A stretch of 64,000 bases of DNA, from assembly GCA_965116925.1 (NCBI GenBank), contig OZ220744.1:6379757-6443756 (forward strand), given 5' to 3'. The DNA comes from Candidatus Poribacteria bacterium. GTDB taxonomy: Bacteria; Poribacteria; WGA-4E; PCPOR2b. The translations under genes and the position numbers were made by a program. A model generated the notes under the pieces. The model worked only from the letters and a program-made list of their open reading frames with translations, was not told where the DNA came from and did not search any database. The first letter of the stretch is position 1. Every line of letters begins with the position of its first letter. Below, piece after piece: positions 5,266 through 48,541 of this stretch.

Positions 5266-6228
5266 TTACCTATTAGATAGGGCAAGTTCTTCTTTTAACT
5301 GCAAGAGTTGTGCTTCTGGAAGATTGGTGATTTCAGAAATGAGCGTCATTTCCATTCCTTTGGCAAGCATTGCCTTTGCAGTTTCAATCTTCTCTTCAAT
5401 TCTGCCTTCCTGCTTGCCCTTCTGTTCACCCTCAAGCAGCCCTTCCTGCTTACCCTCACGCAAACCGTTTTGAAAAAAACGCTGCCTCTCCTTCTCTAAT
5501 GCTGTGACTAACATCGTCTTCACCTCCTCTTCAGTCCGATAAATGGACTCCAATGACTCATAATCGTCAGATTCAATTCGTCCGTGAAAAGCTAACTGCC
5601 TAAACCAGTTTAAGAACAGACTCACCGCCTGTCTATCCGCCTCCGCCGAAAACACATTCAGCAGCTCCGCCTCTAGCACATCTAAGTTGTAATGGGATTC
5701 TGCCAGAAACAACGTTGATACGATGTTTCGGATTTTTAACAACGCCTCCTGACTGTATTGGTTTTCAGCAATCAGGAAATACTGAAAATCTAACGCGAAC
5801 CTACCGAGTGGTGGTGTCCGCTCAATTAACGCCGAAAGATTGACCGGTGCCGTCCAACGTGCCTCTCCATTGTACAGCACAATTGGAAAGACCGCCGGCA
5901 GTTTGTTGACACCGCTGTTATTGACGAGAAAATCCATGTAAAAGTTGGTGATATAGTTCAGCACCCGCAACGCCATGAACGGGTCAACGGTAGATTGAAA
6001 CTCGATGAGAATATAAATATAGACCTCGCGGTCCTGAAACTGGATTTTGTAGATTAAATCACTCTCGGTTTCTTTGTAGTGTTCGGAGATAAAGGATTTA
6101 TCCAAAGGTTCACAGGTGTCGAAATCGAGCGAATGGACCCATTCTTGGTTGACGAAGGTTTCAAGGAGTTGTCGAAAGATGGTCCGATTTGAGAATAGTT
6201 TCTTATAGCCGCTGTCGTGAATATTCAT
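5266..6228 (-). CDS. Rpn-family recombination-promoting nuclease / putative transposase (PD-(D/E)XK, YhgA-like) with a Glu/Lys-rich C-terminal repeat tail
   Basis: Transposase_31-like N-terminal half (DLIYKIQFQDREVYIYILIEFQS...) and a DUF4351-like EGKQEG repeat tail. The ORF begins with GTG-ATG. Confidence 0.65.
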   Translation of the reverse strand: MNIHDSGYKKLFSNRTIFRQLLETFVNQEWVHSLDFDTCEPLDKSFISEHYKETESDLIYKIQFQDREVYIYILIEFQSTVDPFMALRVLNYITNFYMDFLVNNSGVNKLPAVFPIVLYNGEARWTAPVNLSALIERTPPLGRFALDFQYFLIAENQYSQEALLKIRNIVSTLFLAESHYNLDVLEAELLNVFSAEADRQAVSLFLNWFRQLAFHGRIESDDYESLESIYRTEEEVKTMLVTALEKERQRFFQNGLREGKQEGLLEGEQKGKQEGRIEEKIETAKAMLAKGMEMTLISEITNLPEAQLLQLKEELALSNR

Positions 6229-6231
6229 CAC

Positions 6232-6324
6232 TATAGTAGATTTGAGAATTAATTAGACATTGTGAACGAGCCCCGATAGACCGGGATTCACCGAATTAGG
6301 GCACACGGTGTGTGCCTACTACTA
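6232..6324. repeat. Partial copy of MITE-like family T (TATAGTAGATTTGAGAATTAATTAGACA head, ending in the hairpin gggcacacggtgtgtgcc)
   Basis: About 80 % identity to 23140-23233. The head matches the terminal inverted repeats (TIRs) of the elements at 23140-23346 and 29033-29320. Confidence 0.6.
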
Positions 6325-6433
6325 GCAACTTGAGTTAAGATACAGTAATTATACATTCTCCTGCCTTCACGAGTCAACCGAGAGAAGAAATAGATCGCTC
6401 AATATCGGGACACCCCTCTAAGTGGAAGGGCTA

Positions 6434-8176
6434 TCACACGATTACTTCCTCCAGCCCTGTTTTGAGGAGTTGTGAAAATCGTGAATTTGGGTCTCCGACA
6501 AGGCGTTCCCGCTCTCCATGCTCTTGGATTTCGCCATCTTCCAAGATCATTATTTCATTGACCCGTTCAACAGTACCGAGACGATGGGCAATGATAATGC
6601 CTGTTCGGTTACGGAGCAGCTTTTGAACCGCACGATCAATCTGTTGTTCGGTTGCCGGATCCAGTCGGGACGAAGGTTCGTCAAGGATAATGATTCCCGG
6701 ATCTTTGAGAAATACCCGCGCAAATGCGAGCAATTGCGCCTCTCCAGCGGAAAGCTCTCCAGAAGCGATTACAGTATCAAGCCCGTTTGACAGCGACGCA
6801 TACCATTCTGACAACCCCAGTTCTTCAATGACACTCAAAATCTGTGAGTCAGTGATTTCAGCGTTGAAAAGTGTGATGTTGTCCCGGACAGATGAATAAA
6901 AAAGGTGAACATCTTGCGTGACCAACCCCACATTTTGACGTAGGTTATCTTGCTGCACCTTCATTATCGGCATACCGCCCAGACGGATTTCGCCTATATT
7001 TGGCTCGTAGAACCGAAACAGTAAGCGAGTCATAGTTGTTTTGCCGCTACCCGTCCGCCCCAACAGACCGAGGACTTTGCCCGGTGCTAGGCTAAAGGAG
7101 ATCTTTTTTAGAACGGGCTCGCCTTCAGTGTAGTTGAATGTTACCCCATCAAATTCGATTGAGATTGCACCTGAGGCGGGCAGTGTTTCCGTTCCGTCTT
7201 GAATGTGAGCGGTTGTACGCTGCAAGGTCTCGATTCGTTTTAAGCCCGCTGTCGCCTTCTGAAGATCGTTAAGTTGGCGACCGATTTGGTCAAGCGGATG
7301 CCGGAACATAGCGGTATAATAGATGGCCATCATGACTGTGCCGATCGTAAACGTTCCTTCCTGAAAGAGATAGATACACATACTCATCGAAATCGCAAGT
7401 CCTAGGGCAAACATAATCGTCGTGGTTGCCCGCACAATCTCGCCCATAATCTGGGACCTCAGTACCCGTCTGTAAGCATCACTGTTGACATCGTAGAACC
7501 GATCCATCGTATAGGCGCTTCCACCGTTTGTCCGAATGTCTTCAATCCCAACCAGCCGCTCTTCTATAAAGCCGTACAGTTTGGAATAACCCTCTCGCTC
7601 GGCGGTGTACGCTGGAATGGCGACGCTTCGTATGAGGTTGCAGATGACAAACGCAATAATTACAAACGCTGTTAGTGCAATACCCAGCCGCAGATCCTCT
7701 CGGGAGAGTACGATGAGGACGCCAATTAGGAGAAAAGTGTTGCCGATAACCTGCAACACAAATTCCGAGAAGAAGTTTGAGAGTGCTGTTGTATCACCGT
7801 CCACGCGTTCAACCATCTCTCCGGGGGTATATTGGTGATGAAACGACATGTCGAGATTCAGACAGTGAAACGCTAAATTCTCTCGCATCCGATTGGTTAC
7901 TCGCCAACCTACATCCTGCCCCATATAGGAACTAATCAGCATGATAATTTGCCCAAAGATGCCAACTGCAAGGAATAACCCACCGGCGACAAACAGATTT
8001 CGGAGCGCGCCCCCGGCTTTTGCCATATCAATGAAGTCGCGAAGAATCCACGGACCGTACAACCTTAAACCAATCCCACCAAAAATGAAAACAGCAAGTA
8101 GGATCACCCGAAACCACAGGGGTTTAAGATAGTACGCAAGGAGTGAGATGTATTGTCTAAGTGGTACTCTTTGCAA
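6434..8176 (-). CDS. ABC transporter, fused permease/ATPase (type I exporter, MsbA-like)
   Basis: Six-helix transmembrane domain followed by Walker A GRTGSGKTT, the LSAGEAQ signature and Walker B ILDEPSS. Confidence 0.9.
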   Translation of the reverse strand: MQRVPLRQYISLLAYYLKPLWFRVILLAVFIFGGIGLRLYGPWILRDFIDMAKAGGALRNLFVAGGLFLAVGIFGQIIMLISSYMGQDVGWRVTNRMRENLAFHCLNLDMSFHHQYTPGEMVERVDGDTTALSNFFSEFVLQVIGNTFLLIGVLIVLSREDLRLGIALTAFVIIAFVICNLIRSVAIPAYTAEREGYSKLYGFIEERLVGIEDIRTNGGSAYTMDRFYDVNSDAYRRVLRSQIMGEIVRATTTIMFALGLAISMSMCIYLFQEGTFTIGTVMMAIYYTAMFRHPLDQIGRQLNDLQKATAGLKRIETLQRTTAHIQDGTETLPASGAISIEFDGVTFNYTEGEPVLKKISFSLAPGKVLGLLGRTGSGKTTMTRLLFRFYEPNIGEIRLGGMPIMKVQQDNLRQNVGLVTQDVHLFYSSVRDNITLFNAEITDSQILSVIEELGLSEWYASLSNGLDTVIASGELSAGEAQLLAFARVFLKDPGIIILDEPSSRLDPATEQQIDRAVQKLLRNRTGIIIAHRLGTVERVNEIMILEDGEIQEHGERERLVGDPNSRFSQLLKTGLEEVIV

Positions 8177-8282
8177 GCGGATTTTGTCCTTTCATCAAAG
8201 CGAGTAATCCTAGAAGCGGGGTCATTTAGTGGAACATCGGGATTCGGAGATCCCTCCTACATGAGAACTATATGCCCCTATC

Positions 8283-9701
8283 CTAGAGAATATCCGCTTT
8301 AATCATGTTCGTCGTTCCCGGCACATCCGCCGGTATCCCCGCGATGATAACCACCTGATCCCCCATCTGGGCAAGCCCTGATTTCAATACGGCTTGCTTT
8401 GCACTTGCAATCATCGTGTCTGTGTCAGGCGCGAATTCAATTGAGACCGGGAATGCCCCCCAAAAGAGCCCTACACGCCGGAGCGTAGTTTCATAAGGAC
8501 TGACAACTGCAATCGGTGCAGGTGGACGATATTTAGCCACTAGTCTCGCGGTTTGACCTGACCGTGTGCAGCAAATAATTACTTTTGCGCCAATTTCTAT
8601 AGAGGTGTGACAAGCAGCGTGTGCAATTGCATCCGGCACGTTCTCTTCAAGGGTGATGGGTTGGCGTTTGAAGTATTCTACGTAGTCGATGGTAGTTTCA
8701 GTTGTCGTGGCAACTTGAGCCATTGTTCGGACTGCGTCAGAGGGGTATTTGCCGATAGCCGTCTCTCCGGAAAGCATTAAGGCGTCCGTGCCATCGAGAA
8801 TCGCGTTAGCGATGTCTGTGACCTCTGCTCGTGTGGGACGTGGGTTGACAATCATTGATTCAAGCATCTGGGTTGCGGTGATGACTGGCTTACCCACAAG
8901 GTTTGCCCACTTGATAATCTCCTTTTGGATGAGCGGCACTTCAGGAAGGGGGACCTCTAACCCCAAATCCCCTCTAGCGACCATCACACCGTCTGCTTCA
9001 GTGAATATTTTATCTAAGTGATCCAATGCCTCACGTTTTTCTAGTTTGGCGATAATCGGTATATCGGAATCGTGTTGTTGAAGGATTGATCTAAGGTTCT
9101 GAAGGTCCGCGGCACTTCTGATAAAGGATTGGGCGACCCAATCAACGCCGTGATCAATTCCAAAGCGCAGATCCTCGACATCTTTTGGGGTTGGAATGGG
9201 AGTTTGTAGTGAGATATCGGGAACACTGATCCCCTTGTTTGAACGGAGCAGCCCACCGGCGATGACTTCGCAGATGATATCTGTGCTTGTAGTCGAAATC
9301 ACGCACAACTCAATCTCTCCATCCGCCAATAAAATGCGATTTCCCGGTTTAATGTCGGCAACCAATTCGGGATAGCTGATTGATACGGTGTTGAGATTGC
9401 CGACGATTTCCTGTGTTGTGAGAGTGAACTTTGCATTCGGGGATAACTCAATTGGCTCGTCCGAGAATTTGCCGATTCGCATCTTTGGTCCCGAGAGATC
9501 TTGCAAAATTGGTATTCTCACGCCGAGCTGCTTGGATGCTGTTTTCAGATGGGCGATGGTTTGTGCATGATCGGCGTGTGAGCCGTGGGAGAATGAAATT
9601 CTTGCGACATTCATCCCTGACTCAATCAGTGAACGTAACATTTCTGGTGAGCTGCTAGCGGGACCGATCGTACAAACAATATTTGTGCGTTTCCGTTGCA
9701 T
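8283..9701 (-). CDS. pyk: pyruvate kinase
   Basis: IVCTIGPAS N-terminus and typical pyruvate-kinase barrel and C-terminal domains, 472 aa. Confidence 0.9.
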   Translation of the reverse strand: MQRKRTNIVCTIGPASSSPEMLRSLIESGMNVARISFSHGSHADHAQTIAHLKTASKQLGVRIPILQDLSGPKMRIGKFSDEPIELSPNAKFTLTTQEIVGNLNTVSISYPELVADIKPGNRILLADGEIELCVISTTSTDIICEVIAGGLLRSNKGISVPDISLQTPIPTPKDVEDLRFGIDHGVDWVAQSFIRSAADLQNLRSILQQHDSDIPIIAKLEKREALDHLDKIFTEADGVMVARGDLGLEVPLPEVPLIQKEIIKWANLVGKPVITATQMLESMIVNPRPTRAEVTDIANAILDGTDALMLSGETAIGKYPSDAVRTMAQVATTTETTIDYVEYFKRQPITLEENVPDAIAHAACHTSIEIGAKVIICCTRSGQTARLVAKYRPPAPIAVVSPYETTLRRVGLFWGAFPVSIEFAPDTDTMIASAKQAVLKSGLAQMGDQVVIIAGIPADVPGTTNMIKADIL

Positions 9702-9829
9702 ATTATATTTTTTATGTTGGCTGCTATATGTTCCGAAAAATGTACGGTTATGGACATTCTATCAGGATTAATTACCCCGATCAAGCGAAAAAGCGGTAAA
9801 AAATTGGCACTTGATTTCAAAGATAAACT

Positions 9830-9858
9830 TTGCTACACTCTTTGAACGTTTCTATACT
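9830..9858 (+). promoter_or_regulatory. Sigma-70-like promoter candidate TTGCTA-N17-TATACT upstream of the histidine kinase gene
   Basis: -35 at 9830-9835 and -10 at 9853-9858, about 85 nt upstream of the ATG at 9941. Confidence 0.3.
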
Positions 9859-9940
9859 TGATAATTAGCATAAATTCTTTGGAAAATCGATCCTAGTATC
9901 TTCGCACTGATATCTCCAATAACTGATCTACAAACCATCA

Positions 9941-11713
9941 ATGATCTTTACTATCAACAAAATCCATCACAAGATCTTCCTCACTTATAGTTCTGTATTC
10001 CTTATCATAATCGTAGGAATCTTCGTGGTCGCACGTGTTGCTATCGTGCGGACTTTAGATAGTCAGATTCAAGAGGAGGTTCAAGAGTTCAGAACACGGC
10101 TTACCCACACGATAGATCTGCTTCGCCAAGATATTGAGGAAAAAGTTCAGCGCGAAATCAAGGACTGGCGTGTCGTTCAGGCGATCCGAAACCGTGAGCC
10201 GTATCCCCCTAGCATCACCGACAGTGTAATGGATATCTTGGAATATGGAACCGACGAGGGTATTGTTACTGCAAGTAAAGTGGGCAATGATGCTAACTTG
10301 CGCCATGGAGAAAAAGATCTGGAAGCGTTAGCTCTGGCCCGAAAACCGAAGCCAGAACCAGCATCGCGGCTCCGAACACCTGAAGCACGGACGACAATCG
10401 AGATTACATTGCCAATTCAAGCGGAGGGTAATTTTTTGGGATTTGTCACCGGCGGCTATTTTTTACATAAACATCTCAGCCAAGTCCTAAAGGATCTGAC
10501 ACTCCATCCGATCTTTCTCAAGGAAGGTACTCGCCTCGTACCGCTGAACGCCCCCGGCGAGACGATCCCAAAGTACCAACGAGAATCGCTCCTAGCGCAT
10601 GCAGATGACGCATATCAGACGTTTCCAAAGATTGAGCTAATAGGTGTGCCGCACAGCGTCAGTCGTATCCTAATTTTAGCCTCAAATATTGAGATGCAGA
10701 CTGAAGCGCAGCAGAAACCCCAAGTCGTTGGGCCAGAGTTGGTTCTTGCATACTCCCATCGGGATCAGATTGCACTACAACAGCAGCTTATGTCTATCCT
10801 ACTTATCATCGGTGGGGTTGGACTGATTTTAGTATACATTGTCAGTTATATCGTTGGACTTCAAATGACAAAACCGATCAATCAGTTAGCGGCGGGAGCG
10901 GCTGAAATTGCGTCAGGCAATCTTGAACAGCGGGTCGCCCTCCAAAGTCGAGATGAAATCGGTAGATTGGCGAGTGCTTTCAACCAGATGGCGGCAACGC
11001 TGAAGACGAGTCTAGAGAGACAGCTCGCTGCCGAGCGACATGCAGCGTGGGGAGACGCTGCCCGTTGGGTTGTCCACGAGGTTAAGAACCCGCTATTTCC
11101 CATTCGGCTTTCGATCGAAAACCTGCAGCGAGCCTATCAAAGTGGGGACACCCGACCAGCGATGTTTGATGAAATTTTTGTACAATGCACCGACATAGTT
11201 ATTGAGGAGGTGGAACGACTACAGCGACTGGTAGATGAGTTCGATCAGTTTGCACGAATGCCCCCTCCTAAACGGGAGCTATCTGATTTCAATCAAATCG
11301 TGCAGAACGTGGTGAGCCTGTACGCGGAATCCGTCGAGAACATTCAGATTCAGGCGAATCTTTCCTCTGATCTCCTTCCTCTCTCTCTTGATTCGGAGCA
11401 GATCACACAGGCGTTAGGAAATCTGATTAAGAATGCGATCGAAGCCATGCCTAACGGCGGAACACTGAACGTCTCGGCTCAATCGGTAAGTGAGACGAAA
11501 ATTCAGATCCAGATTCGAGACACCGGCATCGGTATGTCACCAGAGACGCTAGCACAGATTTTTGAACCCTATTATACAACAAAAGATACGGGGACAGGAC
11601 TGGGCATGGCGATTGTTCAGCGTATCATCACCGATCACGATGGAGAAATATTCGTCGAAAGCGAAGAAGGGGTTGGCACAACCGTTTCGATTGAATTGTT
11701 TCGTGAAACGTGA
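9941..11713 (+). CDS. sensor histidine kinase (N-terminal transmembrane segment, HAMP, HisKA with HEVKNPL, HATPase_c)
   Basis: H-box WVVHEVKNPL and G-boxes DTGIGM / GTGLGMAIV. Confidence 0.85.
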   Translation: MIFTINKIHHKIFLTYSSVFLIIIVGIFVVARVAIVRTLDSQIQEEVQEFRTRLTHTIDLLRQDIEEKVQREIKDWRVVQAIRNREPYPPSITDSVMDILEYGTDEGIVTASKVGNDANLRHGEKDLEALALARKPKPEPASRLRTPEARTTIEITLPIQAEGNFLGFVTGGYFLHKHLSQVLKDLTLHPIFLKEGTRLVPLNAPGETIPKYQRESLLAHADDAYQTFPKIELIGVPHSVSRILILASNIEMQTEAQQKPQVVGPELVLAYSHRDQIALQQQLMSILLIIGGVGLILVYIVSYIVGLQMTKPINQLAAGAAEIASGNLEQRVALQSRDEIGRLASAFNQMAATLKTSLERQLAAERHAAWGDAARWVVHEVKNPLFPIRLSIENLQRAYQSGDTRPAMFDEIFVQCTDIVIEEVERLQRLVDEFDQFARMPPPKRELSDFNQIVQNVVSLYAESVENIQIQANLSSDLLPLSLDSEQITQALGNLIKNAIEAMPNGGTLNVSAQSVSETKIQIQIRDTGIGMSPETLAQIFEPYYTTKDTGTGLGMAIVQRIITDHDGEIFVESEEGVGTTVSIELFRET

Positions 11714-18235: not shown

Positions 18236-18662
18236 TATGGACAAAATCAATGATGTGGTGATTTGAATATATACACTGAAAAACACGACACACTGCCATT
18301 ATCGCCGTCGGTGTCTTTGGAGGTAGATTGAAACCTCTTGTTAATTGCGATTCTTGCTGTCTTGTTTACCTCTCTTTTCTGTGCAATTTTTTCACACGCT
18401 CGTAAATTTTGCACAATAAATTGCGCGTACTCAGACAGGTTTTACAGTTTCCCCCCTTGTGTTTTTGACTCTTCCGAGATTCGCGCTAGTTGGTACAATT
18501 CTTGCTTAAAGCCTTGTAGTTCGGCGATTTATCGCCGTAGGACACCATTTCCAACGCCCGATGAATCGGGCAACTACAGCAGGAGTACCATCAAGGATCT
18601 CGTAGAGAACAACGATCGTTGTTCCCTACTGAAGTGCGTAACTCCTAAGGAGGATAATTAAA

Positions 18663-39748: not shown

Positions 39749-41585
39749 ACGGCATTACTGTTGCAGCAGGTTCATTGACAAACAGATACAGCCAGTAAAA
39801 ACTCGGCAAAGTTTGTTCAATTGGTGTCGGCAATGGCAGGTGAGACGTCATCGGAAGCCGTATGTCCATCTCCATATCCTCTATTAGGGTCTCGAAGAAC
39901 GTCTTCGGCTTTGGCAGTATGATGAGGTCAATCTCATCGGTGGGATCCAGTGCAATTTGTTTTTTAGCAATTGCGAGTGCGGTATCGAGTCCACCGAGTT
40001 CATCGACAAGCCCAATCTCCTTCGCCTGTTTTCCTGTCCAGATTCGCCCTTGTGCAAGTTCGTGGATTTCCGCTTCGGTTTTATCTCGCCCTTCAGCAGC
40101 CCTTCGGACAAAACCTTGATAGATTGTCTCTAACAATTTCTGCAACCGCTCACGCTCCCTCGGTGTAAAATCGCCGTAATCCGAGTAGAGATTCGCATTC
40201 TTCCCGCGTGTGATAACCTCTTTTGTCAGTCCAACCTTGTTGTAGAGTCCTTTGAGATTGAGTTTCCCGCCAAGCACCCCAATTGAGCCGGTAATTGTCC
40301 CCGGTTCGGCGACAATCGTACCTGCAGCCATAGCGATGTAGTATCCGCCCGATCCGGCAACATCCGACATTGATACGATCACGGGTTTTTCCCGTTGCGT
40401 CAGCAGCACCTCCCGCCAAATGGCGTCTGATGCGACCGCAGACCCGCCGGGACTATCAACTCGCATGATGACCGCTTGAATGTCACTGTCCTCGCGGGCT
40501 TCACGAAGTGCCTCCGCCATTACGCCGGGGGTAATAACCTGTCCTGTTGTGAATGGACTGGTAGGTGCATCGGGCATGATGGGACCGGTGGCGTAAATCA
40601 GTGCAACCTTTGCTTTTCCTTCTCCAGAGGTTGGCTGCTTTGACGATGAAAGCATAGAAAAAAGTCTCATGAAACCCGCAAAGCCGGTGAGTTCAGGGGC
40701 TGCCATTGATTTTTTGCCGTATTCGGACACAACTTCGGCTTTTTCCTCCGCACGTTCCTCAATTGATTGCACCAGTTCGTCGTAGTATTGGAGTGCATCA
40801 ACGAGCTTTGCCTGATGTGCTTCTTCGGCAGTAAAAGGTCCTCGATCAATGAGATTCGCAGCCAACGCCGCATCAATTTCACCCCGTCCGTTAGCAATCA
40901 TTTCAACCTGCTGTGCATAAAGATCATCGAGAATCGCATTCATTGTCTCTCTTTGGGCTTCTGACATACTGTCTCGCATGTATGGCTCAATCGCTGATTT
41001 ATACTTGCCGACAGCGTACAGGTCCGCTTTGACCTCTAGTTTATCCAGAAGGCCTCTGTAAAACATCACTTCAGCCCGCAATCCTGTCAAACCGACCATC
41101 CCTGCCGGCATCAACACAATCCGATCCGCGGCGCAGGCGAGCAGATATTCCACATTGCCACCGCTTTCGAGGTAACTGATGACTTCGATTCCATCGCTTC
41201 GGAGTTGGATAATTTTGTCACGGAGTTCCTGTAGCTTCGCCCAACCGATTCCGAGTCCCTCGATCTTCAGCAAGACACCGGCAACTTCGTCGTCCTTGCG
41301 GATATTGTCGATCTGTTTTGTTATGCTGCGGAGGGTTTTGACTTGGGGCGAAAATACAAATGTGGGTCTGACCTCTGCAAGCGGTCCCTTGATTGCTAAT
41401 TCAACATACTTTTGCGAAGGCATCTCCTGTGTATCTGAAGTTTCGTCTAAGGAATTGGCGGGTACTTGTGGTTCAACCGCTTCCTCTCCGTTCCGAGAGT
41501 CTAAAACTTGAGCAAAAACAGAGGAGCAGATTAGAAGGGTACTGATGACGGTGAGCAGCCAGAATCGCTTTGTCTGTTTCGGCAT
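39729..41585 (-). CDS. sppA: signal peptide peptidase SppA (67K type, tandem S49 domains)
   Basis: 618 aa with a signal peptide and two ClpP/crotonase-fold S49 repeats. Confidence 0.85.
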   Translation of the reverse strand: MPKQTKRFWLLTVISTLLICSSVFAQVLDSRNGEEAVEPQVPANSLDETSDTQEMPSQKYVELAIKGPLAEVRPTFVFSPQVKTLRSITKQIDNIRKDDEVAGVLLKIEGLGIGWAKLQELRDKIIQLRSDGIEVISYLESGGNVEYLLACAADRIVLMPAGMVGLTGLRAEVMFYRGLLDKLEVKADLYAVGKYKSAIEPYMRDSMSEAQRETMNAILDDLYAQQVEMIANGRGEIDAALAANLIDRGPFTAEEAHQAKLVDALQYYDELVQSIEERAEEKAEVVSEYGKKSMAAPELTGFAGFMRLFSMLSSSKQPTSGEGKAKVALIYATGPIMPDAPTSPFTTGQVITPGVMAEALREAREDSDIQAVIMRVDSPGGSAVASDAIWREVLLTQREKPVIVSMSDVAGSGGYYIAMAAGTIVAEPGTITGSIGVLGGKLNLKGLYNKVGLTKEVITRGKNANLYSDYGDFTPRERERLQKLLETIYQGFVRRAAEGRDKTEAEIHELAQGRIWTGKQAKEIGLVDELGGLDTALAIAKKQIALDPTDEIDLIILPKPKTFFETLIEDMEMDIRLPMTSHLPLPTPIEQTLPSFYWLYLFVNEPAATVMPFEIVIR

Positions 41586-41701
41586 GGTGCTACCCTTTCT
41601 GATGTGATGTGTGAGATTTGAACGGGTTCATTTTACCAAATGGCGCGGCAGGTTTCAACCCCAAATGAGTATATTTCTTCTGACCTACGCTAATTTTTGA
41701 T

Positions 41702-42556
41702 TCACAGTGGACGGAACTCTACTAAACGGCTGTTGGCATCAAACCCAGGGGCTCCCACATACTGGATGGCATTTAGATTTATGCTATCCGCATGTGCAAA
41801 GTGAATGTGACCACAAAAAACAGCGACAAGGTTCTCTGCCCTCACAAGGGTACGCGCAAATTCTAAGGTTGGGGGTAGATCTTCTCCGGTGCCCCATTGA
41901 TCTCGACCCTCAGGGCCCCAGTCCGGATCAGCGATTAAAATTGGGTTCTCGAAGCGTTCTAATGTTGGCTCCCGCAGCGTTGGAAGGCTCACAGGGATAT
42001 GGGTGAGCAGCACTGTTGGTATTCCGTTTGCCAGATGTGTAGCTACAAACGCTGTCTGTTCTTCGTCTACTTGATAGATGGAATCATCGACCAGCAAAAA
42101 CTGGATGCCACCGATTTCATATCGGGCATACGCCGCCTCTCCGTGGTGCAGCGGTGCCAATGCCTCCCACCATACTTCCCGCAACTCCCCCCGTCCCTCG
42201 ACGCCCGGATAGTGCCAGTCGTGGTTTCCGGAGGTATACAGTACCGGTACGTCCACTTTGTCAATCGACTTCGCGAGGGTTTCGACACCCGCTTGAGAGG
42301 GGAAATGTACCATATCACCGGTCAACGCAACCAGATCCAGAGAGCTGCCCTTGGCTTCTTCCATCAGCTTATCAAAGATCTGTTCTCTTGATGCAAAACG
42401 CTCGCATGCCCCTTGACAAGCCTCTATATGTTCAGCGTCACGGTCATCAATGAGGGCAATGTGTGAATCGGTGATGTGGAGCATCCGAACCGTTTGATCC
42501 AATCCTTCGACGCAAATCGTTGCTGTGTTATCATTCCATTTGTGTGTCGTTCGCAT
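41702..42556 (-). CDS. calcineurin-like metallophosphoesterase
   Basis: GDMVH, GNHD and GHIH metal-binding motifs. Confidence 0.75.
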   Translation of the reverse strand: MRTTHKWNDNTATICVEGLDQTVRMLHITDSHIALIDDRDAEHIEACQGACERFASREQIFDKLMEEAKGSSLDLVALTGDMVHFPSQAGVETLAKSIDKVDVPVLYTSGNHDWHYPGVEGRGELREVWWEALAPLHHGEAAYARYEIGGIQFLLVDDSIYQVDEEQTAFVATHLANGIPTVLLTHIPVSLPTLREPTLERFENPILIADPDWGPEGRDQWGTGEDLPPTLEFARTLVRAENLVAVFCGHIHFAHADSINLNAIQYVGAPGFDANSRLVEFRPL

Positions 42557-42590
42557 GATTGTTTTCCTTGTATGTACCCCAAGTTACTAG

Positions 42591-42905
42591 GTTAGGACTT
42601 ACGCATTTCAGCTCAGTTGGCGCGGGGAAATCAGATGCTCCGCCCCGATAAATCGGAATGCAAGCACCTGCGGTTGGCTGCGTAAATCGCAAAAAGTGTT
42701 AGATTTTGTTAGATTTTGCCAGGGATGCCGTTAAAGTTAGGATTTACGCATTAGAAGATACTTCTGACTCCCGACAAAATGTTGCGGGGCAAGTCCGAGC
42801 GGATTTCCGATAAATCGAGAGCAGGCTCGTGCCCGGGTATGCCCCACCTACAGTTGGCTGCGTAATGCCTATAGGTATTGAAAATCCGTTGGATTGTCGT
42901 TAAAG
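42591..42905. repeat. Degenerate tandem duplication of about 145 and 170 bp. Both units start GTTAGGA(C/T)TTACGCATT, contain CCGATAAATCG and CACCT(G/A)C(G/A)GTTGGCTGCGTAA, and end GTTAAAGTT. Unit 1 also holds an 11-bp repeat GTTAGATTTTG.
   Basis: The two units align to each other. The region is non-coding and sits at the boundary of the AT-richer island. Confidence 0.6.
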
Positions 42906-43023
42906 TTGATGTGTTCAATCTTTCGCTCCAGCGGAGCGATATGTTTATAGAATACCAATGCATCCCATCTCTGCACTCCAGATGAGTGCTATGTGTATAG
43001 CAAAACATGTCTAGCTGCCAGCA

Positions 43024-44541
43024 TTATGAAAGTTGTTCCATAAACCGCTTAGTTACCCGATCTATGGTCTCCTTTACATCAAACAGTGCATCTTCTGCGG
43101 GATATAGCTCGTCCTTCTCAAGTTTCTCATACGGTAAAGCAATTGCATATTCAACCGCTGCAACTTCATAGCAAACTTCTCGGAATTCTCGTGAATCGGT
43201 AGAATTGCCTCCAGTTTCCAGGGCACTAGCGATTTGGGGATGATCTAAGTTTATGAAAATTGTCTTCGTATCTCCGGCGTACCTTGATCGATTTTGTTCA
43301 GTAGTGATACGCTCAAATTCAATGGAGAAAACTGCTTTTCGCCGTTTTTCGTTCTCTCCGCTTGGATCTTTTCTCGGTTTCGATTTATTTTCTCCCTGTG
43401 CAGCCGATTTCTTCCTTGAGGTATTTCCCTGTCCATCTCCACTCCTAGAACGCCTAACCCTTTGCGTCATTTCAAGGTCCAGCTCTTGTTGCGCGAAGTC
43501 TTGATTGAGAATATTCGAGATTCTATTAGCTTCTTTCACCAGCTTTGCTTCCATCGCTGATTGACGTTTTTCACGAGCTTGTCTCACAAGTTCTAATCTG
43601 ATTTCCTCAAGTTCTTGTGAAAGCCAACCTAGCAGCACCACAACCACGGGATTTTGTCGGTTCAGCGTGTTATTTCTTGTGTTGTCAAAGGCTGGAATGG
43701 GCCATTCACCGTCCTCCAAGATTGGGACATCGATCTGTCCAAAAATTTGATTCGCGTTCTCTTTTCTTTCAATTCCTGCAAGTGTCGTTTCATGCCAGAT
43801 GCCGTGAGATAAAATGTCAATTCCTCGCGTATCCTCGTCTAACGGTACAGGAGATACCTTGACATTCAGGGATACGTCCCCAATATGTTGGGCAACTCCT
43901 TTTGGCGGAAGGCGTTCAAATTGTGCTACAGATGGCGGTTCTTTAAACTTGCACACATGCCCGTTTACAGTCACATGGGCACGGGTACGGTAACGGCTGA
44001 GATGGCGTTCAACGTATGACATCACCTTATCAATATCTAGTCGTTTTATGTTAAATTCGCGAATGACTACAATTGTCCCATCGTCTTCATCTGTTGGCTG
44101 ATTTACCTCAATGTCTCGAACAGGAAAAGGTTCGCCACTTTGTGCCTGTTCAATATCTCTCCTGTGCAGTTCAACGATGTTCCGCGAACCTGCCTGAATT
44201 GTGTCAATGCAAAGCAAATTTGCCAAGCCGAAGGCGGCACATTTGCCCGTACCAAATCGTCCTCGGACTCTTTTTCCCTTTTTTCTAAGAGGATTCTCCC
44301 CGTGCATCTCAAAGAAGCTGCCTAGCTCTTTTTCAGACATACCGCGACTGTTGTCAGATATAGTCACTTCATGGCTTGTTATCTCAACAGCAATAATTGC
44401 TCGGAGGTCATCTTTGACAGCGTCCAGAGAGTTTGCGACGTATTCCCAAACTACTCTAGGCATGGTATTAAAATATGCAGCATTCTGAAGGAAATCCCTA
44501 GCTACATTTGAAGTAACCTTGATAGCGTGTTGTCTAGCCAT
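43024..44541 (-). CDS. GHKL-superfamily ATPase (HATPase_c_3, MutL/MORC-like Bergerat fold) with a charged low-complexity linker and a C-terminal domain. The start is taken at the Met of ARQHAIKV, whose ATG overlaps the upstream TAA as TAATG.
   Basis: N-box EYVANSLDAV, G1 box ISDNSRGMS and G2 box GRFGTGKCAAFG, all within the first ~120 aa. Confidence 0.75.
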   Translation of the reverse strand: MARQHAIKVTSNVARDFLQNAAYFNTMPRVVWEYVANSLDAVKDDLRAIIAVEITSHEVTISDNSRGMSEKELGSFFEMHGENPLRKKGKRVRGRFGTGKCAAFGLANLLCIDTIQAGSRNIVELHRRDIEQAQSGEPFPVRDIEVNQPTDEDDGTIVVIREFNIKRLDIDKVMSYVERHLSRYRTRAHVTVNGHVCKFKEPPSVAQFERLPPKGVAQHIGDVSLNVKVSPVPLDEDTRGIDILSHGIWHETTLAGIERKENANQIFGQIDVPILEDGEWPIPAFDNTRNNTLNRQNPVVVVLLGWLSQELEEIRLELVRQAREKRQSAMEAKLVKEANRISNILNQDFAQQELDLEMTQRVRRSRSGDGQGNTSRKKSAAQGENKSKPRKDPSGENEKRRKAVFSIEFERITTEQNRSRYAGDTKTIFINLDHPQIASALETGGNSTDSREFREVCYEVAAVEYAIALPYEKLEKDELYPAEDALFDVKETIDRVTKRFMEQLS

Positions 44542-45122
44542 TACTCCATCTCCTTTGAAAATTTCGTTTGAAGCAGATCCCACAATTCTGATAAGGTCTC
44601 ATTATCGCTTACCGCGTTCGCTATGATTGCGTATCGCCGCTGTCTGGTTTTGATCTGAAAATACTCATTCACCCGGGCAAACTCGTAGAAATCTTGTACA
44701 GTAATCTCTTTTGATTTATCTGCAACGAATAGGTGATATGCTTTTGTACTGAATAAACGGTTGCGCTCTAGCTCCTGGTTTGCGGAAATAGAAGCTTTCC
44801 TGTATTTAGCTGGGAGTTCATCTCTAATAGCATCAAAATCCACAGTTTTTATCCACTTCAAACCTGCAGGACTGAGCATCCAGCCTTTTGTATTATTCCC
44901 GACTATCAATTCTCCACATCGTGCTTTCTTCGCGTCTTGGAGCGCAAAACTAACAGTTGATAAATCAATGTGTTCAGGATATTTTCGCCAATTAAAGCGT
45001 CCTGGTGCAATATCATTTACCTTGAGAGCGACATCCTCACAATCAACGTACGCCGTGTCTCCATCTAAGAGTGCCACGGCTATTGTAACGAACTGTGGTT
45101 TTGAGAATTCAATTCTTTGCAT
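44541..45122 (-). CDS. hypothetical protein (193 aa), translationally coupled to both neighbouring genes
   Basis: The ORF's ATG overlaps the end of the upstream gene by 14 nt and its stop overlaps the downstream start. No motif I recognise. Confidence 0.5.
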   Translation of the reverse strand: MQRIEFSKPQFVTIAVALLDGDTAYVDCEDVALKVNDIAPGRFNWRKYPEHIDLSTVSFALQDAKKARCGELIVGNNTKGWMLSPAGLKWIKTVDFDAIRDELPAKYRKASISANQELERNRLFSTKAYHLFVADKSKEITVQDFYEFARVNEYFQIKTRQRRYAIIANAVSDNETLSELWDLLQTKFSKEME

Positions 45123-47052
45123 TTCCCGCCTCCTTTTCTATCATAACTGTTCTGGTCCATGCGTTGAATGTAAACTTCACGCGCTCTCCCGGTTGACAGT
45201 TCAGCAATTCAAAAGGCTTTTTTAAATGTCGAAATTCATTCTCAACTACGTTTAGTTCACCTGCTTCCTCACTATTAACATAGCAGGGCCAGTTACCACT
45301 TAAATCCCGAAATTGTTCACAAAAAATCGTACCTGAACCTACAGCAACTGCACTGGGGGTGACACTCACTATGATGTTCCCATCCATACGGTATTCAACT
45401 TCCGGACGAAGTGGCTGATGTTCTCTAGCAGCTTGGGCGCGTTCTATATCTTGGTAGGCTATTACCTTCCCGCGCAGCTTATATAAACCTGATTCTATTT
45501 TATCAAACAAGGGAGAAGAATTTAGGGTTGCATGTAAGGTAGGAAAAGATAGTTCACTTTCTACAAAGGCATGAGCTAATTCGGAATGATGCAATACCGG
45601 TCCGATTTCTTCTAAACAATTCATTATGATAGTTTCACCTTTGCTTAGCTTCTCGTCGCGGGCACCCTCCCAATAATACAATTCATTGTCACATTGGTAG
45701 CCGTTAATCCTAAGTATTTCAGCCATCACATCAGGAGGAGGCACAGGAAATATTGACCTTGATCGAGCAGTATCCCTACTTGCTAGGTATTCTGGTACAG
45801 AGGATCCTGACCTTGATATTCCGTGTCTTAGACCAGCACAGATGTCATCAATATTCAATTGTCCACAGTACTGAAACATCTGATGTAGGCAGCGGTGAAA
45901 AACATCACGGGATGAAATTTGGGAAGGACTGGGAGTAAACCATCCTGTGGAAAGAGCTCTGTATCCTAGTCCTTGCAAGATATCTGTTATCTCTTCTAAT
46001 TCTATTTCCATTTCTTGGGATAGCCACCTAGCATATACGCCTCCGGAAAACTTCCTGTGCCGGTTGATGAGTCTTTTGGCTTTATCAGATAAAGTGTCAA
46101 CCGCATGTAGTATTTTAGCCGGGACATCTGATTTGCCTTTGGCTGCAAGTTGTACAGCATACTGTAAATTCTTAGGCATTTGCAGCCAACGAATCTTACA
46201 ATCAGTAAACAGATTACAGATTGCAATCATGGCTTCTACTGTGTTCGTATCGACAAAGTCCTGTGATGTCCAATCACCAACGAGTCCTGATGACCGAATA
46301 CGCTGCGCCCATCCTGCATAGGTAATATCGAGACCTAAATCTCTCGCGATGAGGAAGGCGGACTGCATTCTATGCAGAGCGGGTTTAGTCTTTAGGTTGC
46401 TGATGGAGATGGCCTTTTCCTTGAGCTCACTGCGTATCTGCCTTACTCGTTCACGCGAAATACCTAGCTTCTCCCCAGTTTGTCTCAGGTTTTTAGGTTC
46501 TAAACCATACGTGGAGAGTAAAACGGGTACACAGTGTTGGCCGGGAATCTGGTTGAGGAAAAACTCGATTTCCTCACAGATATTGAGTGAAGAGCCTAAA
46601 ATGGTTGCTAAAACCTCATATACATGATTACTCTCTATCGTTTTGATCTCCGCACGCCAGTCTTTAACCCAGTCTTTTATCGATTTTTCTGCAATAGGCA
46701 CCTCATAGTGGAGCAATCCTCTTGATAGCTGCTTCTTGACTAATTGTACTTGCCACATAACTACTACCCATGAAATTTCATTATCTTGGGGTGTAATTGT
46801 ATCTGTATTCGCTTTAACCTCAGAATCACCGAGGATTTTCACCTGATCCAGCTTATTTTTTATTTCTAAGATAGATTTTCTTCCGAGACCGGGAGTTGTT
46901 CGGAGTCTGTCCGATTCAACTAGCTGTAAGACTTCTCCAACTGTCTGAATACGGGCGCGTGTGAGGGCGTTGAAGGAACGATTGGTTAGGTTTAATTGAT
47001 CGATGGAATCTTCCGGTGAAAGATTAGCATAATTTAGGAAAAGTTGATTCAT
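45109..47052 (-). CDS. 647-aa protein with an N-terminal RNA-polymerase alpha-subunit CTD-like helix-hairpin-helix (aa ~22-68) and a sigma-70 region-4-like helix-turn-helix (aa ~176-214). The rest has no recognisable domain.
   Basis: LTNRSFNALTRARIQTVGEVLQLVESDRLRTTPGLGRKSILEIKNKL versus RpoA alphaCTD (SANCLK..IGDLVQ..LLKTPNLGKKSLTEIK), and LGISRERVRQIRSELKEKA versus sigma-70 region 4.2 (GVTRERIRQIEAKALRKL). Confidence 0.6.
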   Translation of the reverse strand: MNQLFLNYANLSPEDSIDQLNLTNRSFNALTRARIQTVGEVLQLVESDRLRTTPGLGRKSILEIKNKLDQVKILGDSEVKANTDTITPQDNEISWVVVMWQVQLVKKQLSRGLLHYEVPIAEKSIKDWVKDWRAEIKTIESNHVYEVLATILGSSLNICEEIEFFLNQIPGQHCVPVLLSTYGLEPKNLRQTGEKLGISRERVRQIRSELKEKAISISNLKTKPALHRMQSAFLIARDLGLDITYAGWAQRIRSSGLVGDWTSQDFVDTNTVEAMIAICNLFTDCKIRWLQMPKNLQYAVQLAAKGKSDVPAKILHAVDTLSDKAKRLINRHRKFSGGVYARWLSQEMEIELEEITDILQGLGYRALSTGWFTPSPSQISSRDVFHRCLHQMFQYCGQLNIDDICAGLRHGISRSGSSVPEYLASRDTARSRSIFPVPPPDVMAEILRINGYQCDNELYYWEGARDEKLSKGETIIMNCLEEIGPVLHHSELAHAFVESELSFPTLHATLNSSPLFDKIESGLYKLRGKVIAYQDIERAQAAREHQPLRPEVEYRMDGNIIVSVTPSAVAVGSGTIFCEQFRDLSGNWPCYVNSEEAGELNVVENEFRHLKKPFELLNCQPGERVKFTFNAWTRTVMIEKEAGNAKN

Positions 47053-47214
47053 AATGCAAATCCTTATCTTTAGTAAAGCACCCCGTACTTGGCAAGTACC
47101 AAATCTGCCAATTTACTTAATGTGGTAATCATAGTGCTGAATTTGTACCTGATGACAAGCTAAACATACGATTCAATACGGTTAATTCCTTTTACTATGT
47201 CTTGAAGGTATACG

Positions 47215-47559
47215 TCATAGGTTCGTGACATACTCTACCTGTTTTTCAATATAAGGTTTCAAGTCCGATTTAACGGACTGAACGGCAACAAGGTCAACCT
47301 TCTTCTCAAACAGATCTTCGAGGAAGAGAACAAGCCCCATGTAGTTGCGAAAAGTTGATTTTTCTAATTCAACGAGTAGATCAATGTCACTTGTAGCGTG
47401 TGCTGTTCCATTCACGTAAGATCCGAACAATCCGATTTGCTTGACCCCAAACTTCCTCAGTGTATCCCGGTTATCCGCAAGTGTCTGTTTGATAAAGTGC
47501 TTGCTGAGAACTGCTCGGTTTTCCAACTTAAAACCCTCCACTGAAGCCTTTAAGAGCAT
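47215..47559 (-). CDS. minimal nucleotidyltransferase (MNT, MntA-like) of a HepT/MntA-type toxin-antitoxin pair, without a detectable HEPN partner
   Basis: GLFGSYVNGTAHATSDIDLLVE (G-S-x9-13-D-x-D) motif, 114 aa. Confidence 0.75.
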   Translation of the reverse strand: MLLKASVEGFKLENRAVLSKHFIKQTLADNRDTLRKFGVKQIGLFGSYVNGTAHATSDIDLLVELEKSTFRNYMGLVLFLEDLFEKKVDLVAVQSVKSDLKPYIEKQVEYVTNL

Positions 47560-47665
47560 GGCTAGCAGTTACAATGCTTTTATGAAAATGATCTTTTACT
47601 CGTTTAGGTAGCGACTTAACATTATTATACATCTTTTTATGTCGTTTATCAAACGAGTCCTGTAG

Positions 47666-47671
47666 TATAAT
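47666..47671 (+). promoter_or_regulatory. TATAAT -10 hexamer about 75 nt upstream of the isochorismatase-family gene, in an AT-rich intergenic region
   Basis: There is a sequence match to the -10 consensus only. The -35 element is poor. Confidence 0.2.
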
Positions 47672-47746
47672 TACACCACGACTAAATAAAAAAATCCAAG
47701 CAGCAAATTGTCTCAGAGAATCTACGGAGGAAAAAGGAGGATAACC

Positions 47747-48541
47747 ATGCGCGTTGAACTTTTAGCCATTGATTGCCAAAACGACTTCTGTGATCCGGGT
47801 GGCGCGCTTTATGTGCCGGGCGCAGAAAATGATATGGCCTGTTTAGCGACATTTATCGATCGGATCGGTAGTCGTCTACACAATATGCACTTCACACTTG
47901 ACAGCCATCACACGGTTGATGTCGGGCATCCAATATTTTGGAAAAGTAGCGATGGTGAGCCGCCGGAATCATTTACTACCATCACGCATGAGGATGTTAA
48001 AGCTGGAAACTGGCTGCCGTATGATCCAGCGTTTACTCAACGGATGTTGGATTACACGCGGCTGTTGGAGGAAAATAATCGGTATCAACTGACGATTTGG
48101 CCCATACACTGCCGGATCGCAACGTGGGGGAGCGCGCTCTATCCTTCTGTGGATCAGGCGGTGCGAGATTGGGAGACATCTCAATTGAGGGTTGTTGATT
48201 TCGTAACGAAGGGTTCAAATATTTTCACCGAGCACTACAGCGCGGTGAAGGCGGATGTCCCGGATCCAGAAGACCCCGCCACGCAGCTCAATACCGACCT
48301 AATCCAGAAACTGGAAAGGTGTGATCAGGTGATTATTGTCGGTGAAGCGTTATCTCACTGCGTCGCAAGTACGGTGCGGGATATCGCAACCGAGTTTGGT
48401 GATGAAGGGGTGAAGAAATTTGTTATTCTTGAGGACTGTATGTCGAATGTCCCCGGCTTTGAATCGCTCGGCGATGCGTTCCTGCACGATATGTCACAAC
48501 TGGGGGTGACCATTACCAACAGCGTGGACTTCATGCGATGA
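47747..48541 (+). CDS. isochorismatase-family cysteine hydrolase. The start is taken at MRVELLAID, which has the RBS AAGGAGGA.
   Basis: LLAIDCQNDFCDPGGALYV N-terminal signature of the isochorismatase/nicotinamidase fold. Confidence 0.6.
   Translation: MRVELLAIDCQNDFCDPGGALYVPGAENDMACLATFIDRIGSRLHNMHFTLDSHHTVDVGHPIFWKSSDGEPPESFTTITHEDVKAGNWLPYDPAFTQRMLDYTRLLEENNRYQLTIWPIHCRIATWGSALYPSVDQAVRDWETSQLRVVDFVTKGSNIFTEHYSAVKADVPDPEDPATQLNTDLIQKLERCDQVIIVGEALSHCVASTVRDIATEFGDEGVKKFVILEDCMSNVPGFESLGDAFLHDMSQLGVTITNSVDFMR

Follow-up and report, generated by a model that had tools for sequence, protein, structure and literature searches.

We describe here a conserved module of three overlapping genes, designated A, B and C, carried by a sponge-associated bacterium, Candidatus Poribacteria, within a stretch of 64,000 nucleotides (contig OZ220744.1 of assembly GCA_965116925.1, positions 6,379,757 to 6,443,756 of the forward strand; hereafter the window). 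The trio is conserved and real as a module, the three genes being linked to each other in many phyla. Its truly unusual feature is that a single non-polymerase protein, A, combines the carboxy-terminal domain of the alpha subunit of RNA polymerase (alpha-CTD and RNAP, respectively) with a sigma-70 region 4. We know of no earlier case in which such a protein is coupled to a MutL/MORC-type ATPase. There is, in our estimation, an even chance that the trio serves in defence or conflict as a DNA-directed module of the GHKL (paraMORC/MutL-like) kind, working roughly as proposed below. The three genes are the following (positions without a locus label are those of the window):

45109..47052, minus strand: gene A, 647 aa, a predicted multi-domain DNA-reader protein
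44541..45122, minus strand: gene B, 193 aa, without family assignment
43024..44541, minus strand: gene C, 505 aa from the ATG, a GHKL ATPase (HATPase_c_3)

An initial annotation, made from the letters alone, had proposed three overlapping minus-strand open reading frames (ORFs) at these positions within an AT-richer block. The first point was confirmed by ORF calling and by direct reading of both junctions. The ATG of B (45122-45120) precedes the TGA of A (45111-45109) with an overlap of 14 nt, and the TAA of B (44543-44541) runs into the ATG of C (44541-44539) as TAATG. Shine-Dalgarno sequences precede the starts of B (AAAGGAGG) and C (AAGGAG), and for the latter a GTG 14 codons upstream of the ATG is a possible alternative start. 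The compositional difference also held upon calculation: the GC content of the ca. 4.5 kb block (43024-47559) is 0.430, against 0.492 ± 0.012 for windows of the same size elsewhere in the 64 kb (z = -5.1), and at third codon positions the three genes have a GC of 0.38-0.39, compared with 0.51-0.55 for seven flanking genes.

Using B alone as bait, we scanned one genome per species (185,579 species) and analyzed the retrieved loci by ORF calling and BLAST. The bait retrieved 44 loci, all in metagenome-assembled genomes (MAGs), from at least nine bacterial phyla and apparently from archaea too. The A, B and C families co-occur in 37-38 of the 44, and C follows B in essentially every locus long and intact enough to judge, so that the genes are linked rather than scattered, as the idea of a module demanded. 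Two gene orders are found, A-B-C in Poribacteria, Chloroflexota and archaeal-labelled contigs, and B-C-A in Acidobacteriota, Verrucomicrobiota, Eisenbacteria, Eremiobacterota, Bacillota and Alphaproteobacteria. The archaeal cases are Hodarchaeales-labelled contigs and a Nitrososphaerota-labelled protein; these are short binned contigs, for which an archaeal host is uncertain. A conserved fourth gene downstream was considered and rejected, the ORFs of ~124-138 aa that follow the module in several loci being mutually unrelated, and the 85-aa ORF of the window (42751-43008) is conserved only in the closest relative.

The domains called in the initial annotation for A and C were all recovered with Pfam. 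In A these are RNA_pol_A_CTD (residues 15-69, E 6e-15) and Sigma70_r4 (residues 178-207, E 2e-6), and in C HATPase_c_3 (residues 27-151, E 9e-16). The domains of A lie as follows:

46846..47010, minus strand: alpha-CTD (helix-hairpin-helix), residues 15-69, with equivalents of E. coli R265, N268, G296, K298 and S299 present
46411..46590, minus strand: sigma-70 region 4 helix-turn-helix, residues 155-214 (PDB profile E 1e-10 to 1tty_A; alignment to E. coli RpoD)
45418..46380, minus strand: helical and winged-helix array, residues ~225-545, the conserved core of the family (approximate boundaries)

A profile built from 38 members of the A family, searched by sequence against PDB, had only two kinds of match, to solved alpha-CTD structures over residues 1-70 (E 3e-13) and to sigma region 4 over residues 155-214 (E 1e-10). 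The protein also matched several winged helices (those of SelB in tandem, cullin/APC2 WHB and Z-alpha), for a total of three or four, together with a B3/EcoRII-N-like DNA-binding pseudobarrel; A showed no enzymatic fold. When A was aligned to RpoA and RpoD of E. coli MG1655, the "265 determinant" of the alpha-CTD proved to be kept (R25 corresponds to R265, N28 to N268, and GRKS to G296-K297-K298-S299), and the recognition helix of sigma region 4.2 reads SRERVRQI, compared with T583-RERIRQI in sigma70. R200, R202 and Q205 do not vary in the alignment of the family, and E201, V203 and R204 hardly do. In RNAP the residues so aligned are the ones that contact DNA, and the alpha-CTD binds the minor grooves of A/T-rich UP elements. 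Conservation of these contacts suggests that A really does bind DNA. Taken together with the winged helices and the B3-like barrel, and with the alpha-CTD-like and sigma-HTH-like (helix-turn-helix) modules of the bacteriophage exclusion (BREX) proteins PglW and BrxL, which have been interpreted as DNA binders (PMC12839542), it points to plain DNA binding rather than to the mimicry or hijacking of transcription complexes that the initial annotation had considered plausible.

The A family is small. A search of 1.84 billion representatives with residues 220-647 found no more than 234 clusters (50% identity), the match being nearly always C-terminal in proteins of 600-1300 aa, and even distant members (23-30% identity) still have alpha-CTD and Sigma70_r4 in front. 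The protein is neither an RNAP alpha subunit nor a sigma factor by profile: against the rpoA equivalog only the CTD matches (44 bits, cutoff 228), the N-terminal dimerisation and assembly domain finding no counterpart, and against sigma factors only region 4 does, region 2 being absent from the match (TIGR02937, 21 bits, cutoff 42.9). A structural search of BFVD with A gave no significant match. Some distant relatives carry a C-terminal DUF4268 or NOV_C (DUF3883), which we take to be PD-(D/E)xK-type nuclease families, and others an N-terminal PC4, a single-stranded-DNA-binding domain; architectural variants were seen in the relatives P0467, P0488, P0497 and P0472. The number of alpha-CTD repeats is itself variable, from 0 to 11 per protein in the family and from 1 to 11 among the Poribacteria that are syntenic with the window, the window having one and the syntenic locus L007 eleven. 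Proteins of the family with tandem N-terminal alpha-CTDs are encoded at:

L007:5992-10014: A-family protein with tandem N-terminal alpha-CTD
L005:6526-10014: A-family protein with tandem N-terminal alpha-CTD
L018:5910-9998: A-family protein with tandem N-terminal alpha-CTD

Protein B gave no match in Pfam, NCBIfam, PADLOC or PHROGs, and is modelled as an N-terminal winged helix (residues ~8-93) followed by a C-terminal helical domain (112-192). The Mrr_N proteins found beside some copies of the trio (see below) prompted us to consider an Mrr_N-type winged helix for B, which was discarded after hhalign to two of these neighbours returned a probability below 1%.

Protein C has more than 1529 homologues. 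It consists of the GHKL ATPase, a conserved middle region, a linker (coiled-coil and low-complexity) that varies in length, and a C-terminal domain that is conserved too. Among 23 sequences of 36-83% identity the GHKL motifs are invariant (E33 and N37; D63...G67; G94-x-F-G-T-G99-K), and so are MHGEN, FDNTRN in the middle region and INLDHPQ...YEVAxxEYA in the C-terminal domain. Resemblance of its sequence to anything known is limited to the first ~200 residues, which in PDB match GyrB and HtpG; beyond residue ~200 no Pfam or PDB sequence match was obtained, S5 domain included. The similarity of INLDHPQ...YEVAAVEYA to LEINPDHP...LYETALL had made a C-terminal domain of the Hsp90 type conceivable, and this was rejected when hhalign to E. 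coli HtpG aligned the N-domain only (probability 94%). The term "MutL/MORC-like", used for this protein at the outset, is fair as the description of a class and does not amount to a family assignment, the best match being the N-terminal ATPase of BbrUII/HgiDII, below threshold.

In seven Poribacteria species the module occupies the same slot as in the window, between an isochorismatase-family gene and the metallophosphoesterase and sppA genes, and in other Poribacteria it is found in at least four further contexts, i.e., at least five within the phylum. Identity to the window proteins in the seven syntenic species is 64-92% for A, the fastest-evolving of the three, 76-83% for B and 82-87% for C, compared with 84-99% for ten flanking housekeeping proteins. 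The trio has a lower GC content than its flanks, by 4-14 points, in 20 of 22 loci. Disrupted or decayed copies are found in L014, L023, L031, L035, L042 and L024/41/43-45; at L014:6307-10014 gene A is split into ORFs 6307-8256 and 9235-10014 by an insertion with a 265-aa ORF (from 8398). In a scan of metagenomes with the flanking metallophosphoesterase, only relatives of at most 72% identity were recovered, on short contigs in which synteny was not conserved.

Some of the neighbours are those expected of a conflict system. A type I restriction-modification (R-M) system and an MqsA-type toxin-antitoxin (TA) pair adjoin the trio in L049-51. In the archaeal-labelled pair L046/47 it lies between Mrr_N and SRA-McrA genes (L046:814-1743 and 5974-7044), and in L034, a Bacillota MAG, an Mrr_N gene (1045-1641) is directly beside it; one Mrr_N-domain neighbour also has an SRA/ScoMcrA domain. 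In L048, on the other hand, the trio sits among plain housekeeping genes. Our survey covered the 150 nearest ORFs from 30 non-redundant contexts, and the non-housekeeping families that recur are Mrr_N (three), DNA methylases (two of type II and two of type I), PIN domains (two, at the ORF-size cut), DDE transposases (two), TrwB (two), AAA_35 (two) and PADLOC mad2 (four). Immediately upstream of the module, a Chloroflexia MAG (L020:7342-8043) and a Blastocatellia MAG (L023:1137-1754) encode homologous proteins of ~205-233 aa without a Pfam match, whose gene may be accessory. Patchy spread, GC deficit, varied contexts, faster evolution, decay, and the occasional R-M, type IV restriction, TA or insertion sequence (IS) neighbours are together the usual signature of conflict rather than of a housekeeping function, which suggests that the trio is an accessory, horizontally spread module.

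Among these neighbours, TA pairs encoding RNases deserve separate mention. Two features are found upstream of A in the window:

47215..47559, minus strand: MNT, an MntA-type nucleotidyltransferase (Pfam NTP_transf_2 E 1e-14; PADLOC PDC-S09 E 3e-31)
47160..47216, minus strand: remnant of HepT (HEPN RNase toxin), 18 codons, DVYLQDIVKGINRIESYV then stop, found by translation and tblastn

MNT is on the same strand as A, 162 nt upstream, and scores 47.4 bits against NCBIfam MntA (cutoff 60). It had been described as an orphan, which turned out not to be strictly so. A type VII MntA-HepT system with an intact adjacent HepT gene is not what the window holds, only the remnant (47216-47160), which starts inside the MNT stop codon and has no in-frame start codon. 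Its sequence matches the N-terminus (DIYLQDIVEAINRIESYI) of the intact HepT of L002 (6546-6890; Pfam HepT-like E 7e-30), which identifies MNT, by this match, as the apparent surviving antitoxin of a decayed MntA-HepT pair. Similar HepT remnants are found in L006 and L012. The space upstream of A in the slot shared by the Poribacteria holds zero to two copies of MNT, with an intact MntA-HepT in L002. The same slot contains a 1152-aa R-M fusion of the Eco57I/MmeI type in L004 (2839-6297), and IS4/5 and IS630 transposases in L012 (5411-7449). This slot, bounded by the isochorismatase-family gene and the trio, is a hot spot of insertion. In the clade with order B-C-A a different pair, VapB (MazE/AbrB-type) and VapC (PIN), is located directly upstream of B in 12 loci (L024, L025, L026, L029, L030, L031, L032, L036, L041, L043-L045). 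The pair, which shares 4 nt with B in L026 and L030 (9263-9971 in the latter), stays intact where the module has decayed to a fragment of B. Loci without a TA pair are L009, L010, L016, L018, L020, L022, L027, L028, L033, L038, L039 and L048.

With all this in mind, the trio might function as follows. A would be the DNA-recognition subunit, a multivalent reader of double-stranded DNA through its alpha-CTD, its sigma region 4 with the residues that read the -35 hexamer, its winged helices and its B3-type barrel, and B would be an adaptor or a second DNA-binding subunit. C would be the motor. By comparison with MutL, MORC and GyrB, binding of ATP would bring its GHKL heads together in a dimer kept in place by the C-terminal domain, and the resulting clamp would trap or compact DNA marked by A and B. 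The outcome could be a block of transcription or replication on invading DNA that is rich in promoters or in A/T, or else the licensing of an effector, candidates being the RNase toxin whose gene directly precedes the trio in many loci, or the PD-(D/E)xK-type domains that rare variants of A carry. It is the gene context that suggests a role in defence, while DNA binding, formation of a complex and ATP-driven clamping are what the domains and their retained residues would predict.

Several observations weigh against a defence or conflict module. In the window, the three proteins showed no effector such as a nuclease, helicase or methyltransferase, the middle and C-terminal parts of C being covered by sequence searches only, and there are no other defence genes within 10 kb of the trio. 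Most of the 150 nearest ORFs in the 30 contexts are metabolic or transport genes, and defence or mobile genes make up ca. one tenth, a proportion that stands without a background comparison. Searches of IMG/VR and PLSDB yielded no vehicle of transfer: there were no relatives of B or C in the viral contigs of the former, and on the plasmids of the latter there was none of B and only one match to C (23% identical). The proposed working also offers no account of how the trio would discriminate self from non-self. Finally, the position shared by seven Poribacteria species would fit a domesticated host function as well.

This last point leads to the alternative that best withstands the data, unlikely as we hold it to be, namely that the trio is a domesticated or host nucleoid or transcription regulator, e.g., a promoter-occluding silencer sitting on host promoters. 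Reading frames that are intact in the same slot in seven species would be expected of such a regulator, and a protein that keeps the DNA-contact residues of the housekeeping RNAP would bind host promoters too; mostly housekeeping neighbours and the failure to find an effector domain are also in line with it. A regulator of this sort is hard to reconcile, though, with a spread as sparse and patchy as 44 of 185,579 species in at least nine phyla, with a GC deficit in almost every host, or with several contexts within one phylum, frequent decay and faster evolution than the flanks, nor does it account for the R-M, Mrr_N, TA and IS neighbours of several loci.

Somewhat less probable still is a nuclease-free silencer that reads promoters, in which A finds the strong promoters of incoming DNA and loads the clamp of C via B, so that the DNA is compacted or occluded. 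The trio would then be a prokaryotic counterpart of the silencing of invasive elements by eukaryotic MORCs, and the number of alpha-CTD repeats would tune avidity.

We regard as distinctly improbable the idea that A is a decoy or guard sensor, in which the alpha-CTD repeats and sigma region 4 act as bait for phage takeover proteins and then activate B and C. Phages do target these parts of the polymerase; for example, Alt and ModA of T4 act on R265 of the alpha-CTD and AsiA acts on sigma region 4. The change from 1 to 11 alpha-CTDs in close relatives, in the fastest-evolving protein of the trio, is typical of arms-race interfaces, and the conserved equivalent of R265 and region 4 residues are what a faithful bait requires. 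Yet these same residues are DNA contacts, the remainder of A consists of DNA-binding domains, the comparable modules of PglW and BrxL have been read as DNA binders, and nothing ties C to a toxic output.

Nor do we give much credit, indeed very little, to the trio being a control module for the adjacent TA pair, with HepT (HEPN) or VapC (PIN) as the real effector. It is true that two distant clades have RNase TA pairs of unrelated types at the same position 5' of the trio and with its orientation, and a GHKL protein that controls a VapC-like toxin provides a precedent (PMC13373217). But HepT is only a remnant in the window, L006 and L012, where A, B and C are intact, many loci have no TA pair, C is not of the protein-kinase type and B is without a STAS domain. 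Besides, TA pairs often hitch-hike in islands. The remaining alternative, in which the trio would serve an unrecognised integrative mobile element for maintenance, partition or the control of replication, is hardly credible: low GC, patchy distribution, IS or TrwB-like genes near some copies and the usual make-up of partition systems (DNA-binding proteins plus an ATPase) speak for it, but genes for integrases, transposases or replication are not consistently associated with the trio, the window's island measures just 4.5 kb and neither a tRNA gene nor direct repeats flanking the block were found in the window, the module is not on PLSDB plasmids or IMG/VR viral contigs, and GHKL ATPases are, to our knowledge, not partition ATPases.

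Some minor features accompany the block in the window:

42591-42685 and 42736-42865, no strand assigned: two copies of a degenerate repeat, between C and the metallophosphoesterase gene
47624..47652, minus strand: promoter-like site upstream of MNT, near-consensus sigma-70 type, TTGATA-17-TATAAT (11/12), from a consensus scan

The repeat (42591-42905 in the initial annotation) had been taken for a degenerate tandem duplication. Two copies are indeed present in 42591-42865, only ~60% alike, and Tandem Repeats Finder did not report them, nor did Rfam give a match there. Their ends are conserved (GTTAGGAyTTACGCATT and CACCTrCrGTTGGCTGCGTAA), and a partial third copy is located 24 kb away, at 18633-18649. 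What this looks like is a dispersed short intergenic repeat, with conserved end sequences GTTAGGAnTTACGCA and CCTGCnGTTGGCTGCGTAA, rather than the border of an island, and the copies probably do not belong to the module. A perfect palindromic hairpin rich in GC, TCGCTCCAGCGGAGCGA, is found at 42923-42939, ~85 nt 3' of the stop codon of C. Its terminator-type run of T is on the plus strand, where no gene ends; the hairpin may be the transcript-end structure of the trio. The site at 47624-47652, a pattern match, is a possible promoter for MNT and perhaps also for the trio, and the region has no more promoter-like sites in total than expected from shuffled sequence. Scanning 41500-48500 with Rfam gave no credible RNA gene in the repeat or spacer regions, the sole match, to a eukaryotic snoRNA model, being discarded as chance (18 bits, gathering score 41).

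If the trio is a defence system, it adds a family that catalogues have missed since it is confined to uncultured lineages (such as Poribacteria, Chloroflexota, Acidobacteriota and Verrucomicrobiota). It also offers a testable bacterial model for the targeting of GHKL clamps to specific DNA, an open question for the eukaryotic MORCs, and the recurrence of two unrelated RNase TA pairs upstream is a second testable link, between TA modules and DNA-sensing machinery.

It remains to compare the trio with the systems already described. Neither Pfam, NCBIfam 20, PADLOC 2.0 nor PHROGs assigned it to a named system, and a full-text search of the literature returned no description of it, in agreement with the initial annotation, whose author knew of no named system with this combination. 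Its proposal of a candidate undescribed three-gene module of conflict-system type thus stands, overturned neither by the composition of the block, nor by the linkage of the genes across genomes, nor by these searches.

MORC and paraMORC proteins are like the trio in having an N-terminal GHKL domain of the HATPase_c_3 type with its ATP motifs, followed by further conserved domains, and in being sporadic and laterally mobile in bacteria and archaea with occasional R-M neighbours; paraMORC GHKL proteins are known from R-M contexts (Iyer, Abhiman and Aravind 2008, PMC2292703). The partners differ. Those of paraMORCs are superfamily II helicases, methylases and RE-fold/Vsr nucleases, whereas those of C are two proteins, A and B, both predicted to bind DNA. 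In the retrieved loci we found no operon association with superfamily II helicases, methylases or RE-fold proteins, A and B being the only conserved partners and R-M genes being adjacent in a few loci. Also unlike paraMORCs, no nuclease or TIR C-terminal domain is recognised in C. With MutL, C shares the GHKL head, the long flexible linker and a conserved, probably dimerising C-terminal domain, and a similar ATP clamp cycle is to be expected, but its operon partners are others. It scores 20.2 bits against NCBIfam mutl (residues 30-80, cutoff 180) and has no MutL_C or DNA_mis_repair match in Pfam.

The best match of the GHKL domain is to the ATPase at the N-terminus of type II restriction enzymes of the BbrUII/HgiDII family (NCBIfam E 3.5e-14; PADLOC REase_II E 2e-7). 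Its score is 52.3 bits against a cutoff of 550 (NF050001), over profile positions 20-201 of 659 only. The domain also matches a phage family, phrog_6203 (E 2e-22), and MzaB of the MZA system (NF041932, 23.3 bits over residues 34-124, cutoff 850; PADLOC E 2e-5 to 1.5e-3). All of these matches involve the first ~200 residues of profiles of 480-660 positions, the remainder of which is absent in C. Of the other components of MZA (MzaA, C, D and E) there is no PADLOC match in A or B, and the conserved operon consists of exactly three genes.

Protein A resembles PglW of BREX type 2 in the succession of an alpha-CTD and winged helices. PglW has an alpha-CTD-like helical domain and then three winged helices, and BrxL a sigma-HTH-like domain (PMC12839542). 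The matches to PglW are weak (PADLOC E 3e-6; NCBIfam 21.6 bits in the alpha-CTD segment, cutoff 990). In contrast to PglW, A is without a kinase and a STAND ATPase and adds sigma region 4 and the B3-like barrel; there are no PglX, PglZ, BrxC or other BREX genes within 10 kb. That barrel is 6-14% identical to those of EcoRII-N, BfiI-C, LlaJI.R1-N and plant B3 factors, and is fused to readers of the RNAP type in A and to a nuclease in those restriction enzymes.

Two further GHKL systems were considered. CapK is an HTH-STAS-GHKL protein kinase and CapS a STAS-winged-HTH protein, with a related GHKL-STAS-VapC operon, VapK-VapS-VapC (PMC13373217). The trio is similar in that a GHKL protein and a small winged-helix partner are found beside immune genes, with a variant coupled to a PIN-domain VapC, but membership was rejected, as there is no STAS match in B or C and C is of the HATPase_c_3 rather than the kinase type. 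GHKL-Shedu proteins of the VcSduA type end in a DUF4263 nuclease of the PD-(D/E)xK kind (PMC12137116), and were set aside as well, there being no DUF4263 match in C. Undescribed as far as these tools tell, the trio probably belongs with the GHKL-based, DNA-directed conflict modules.

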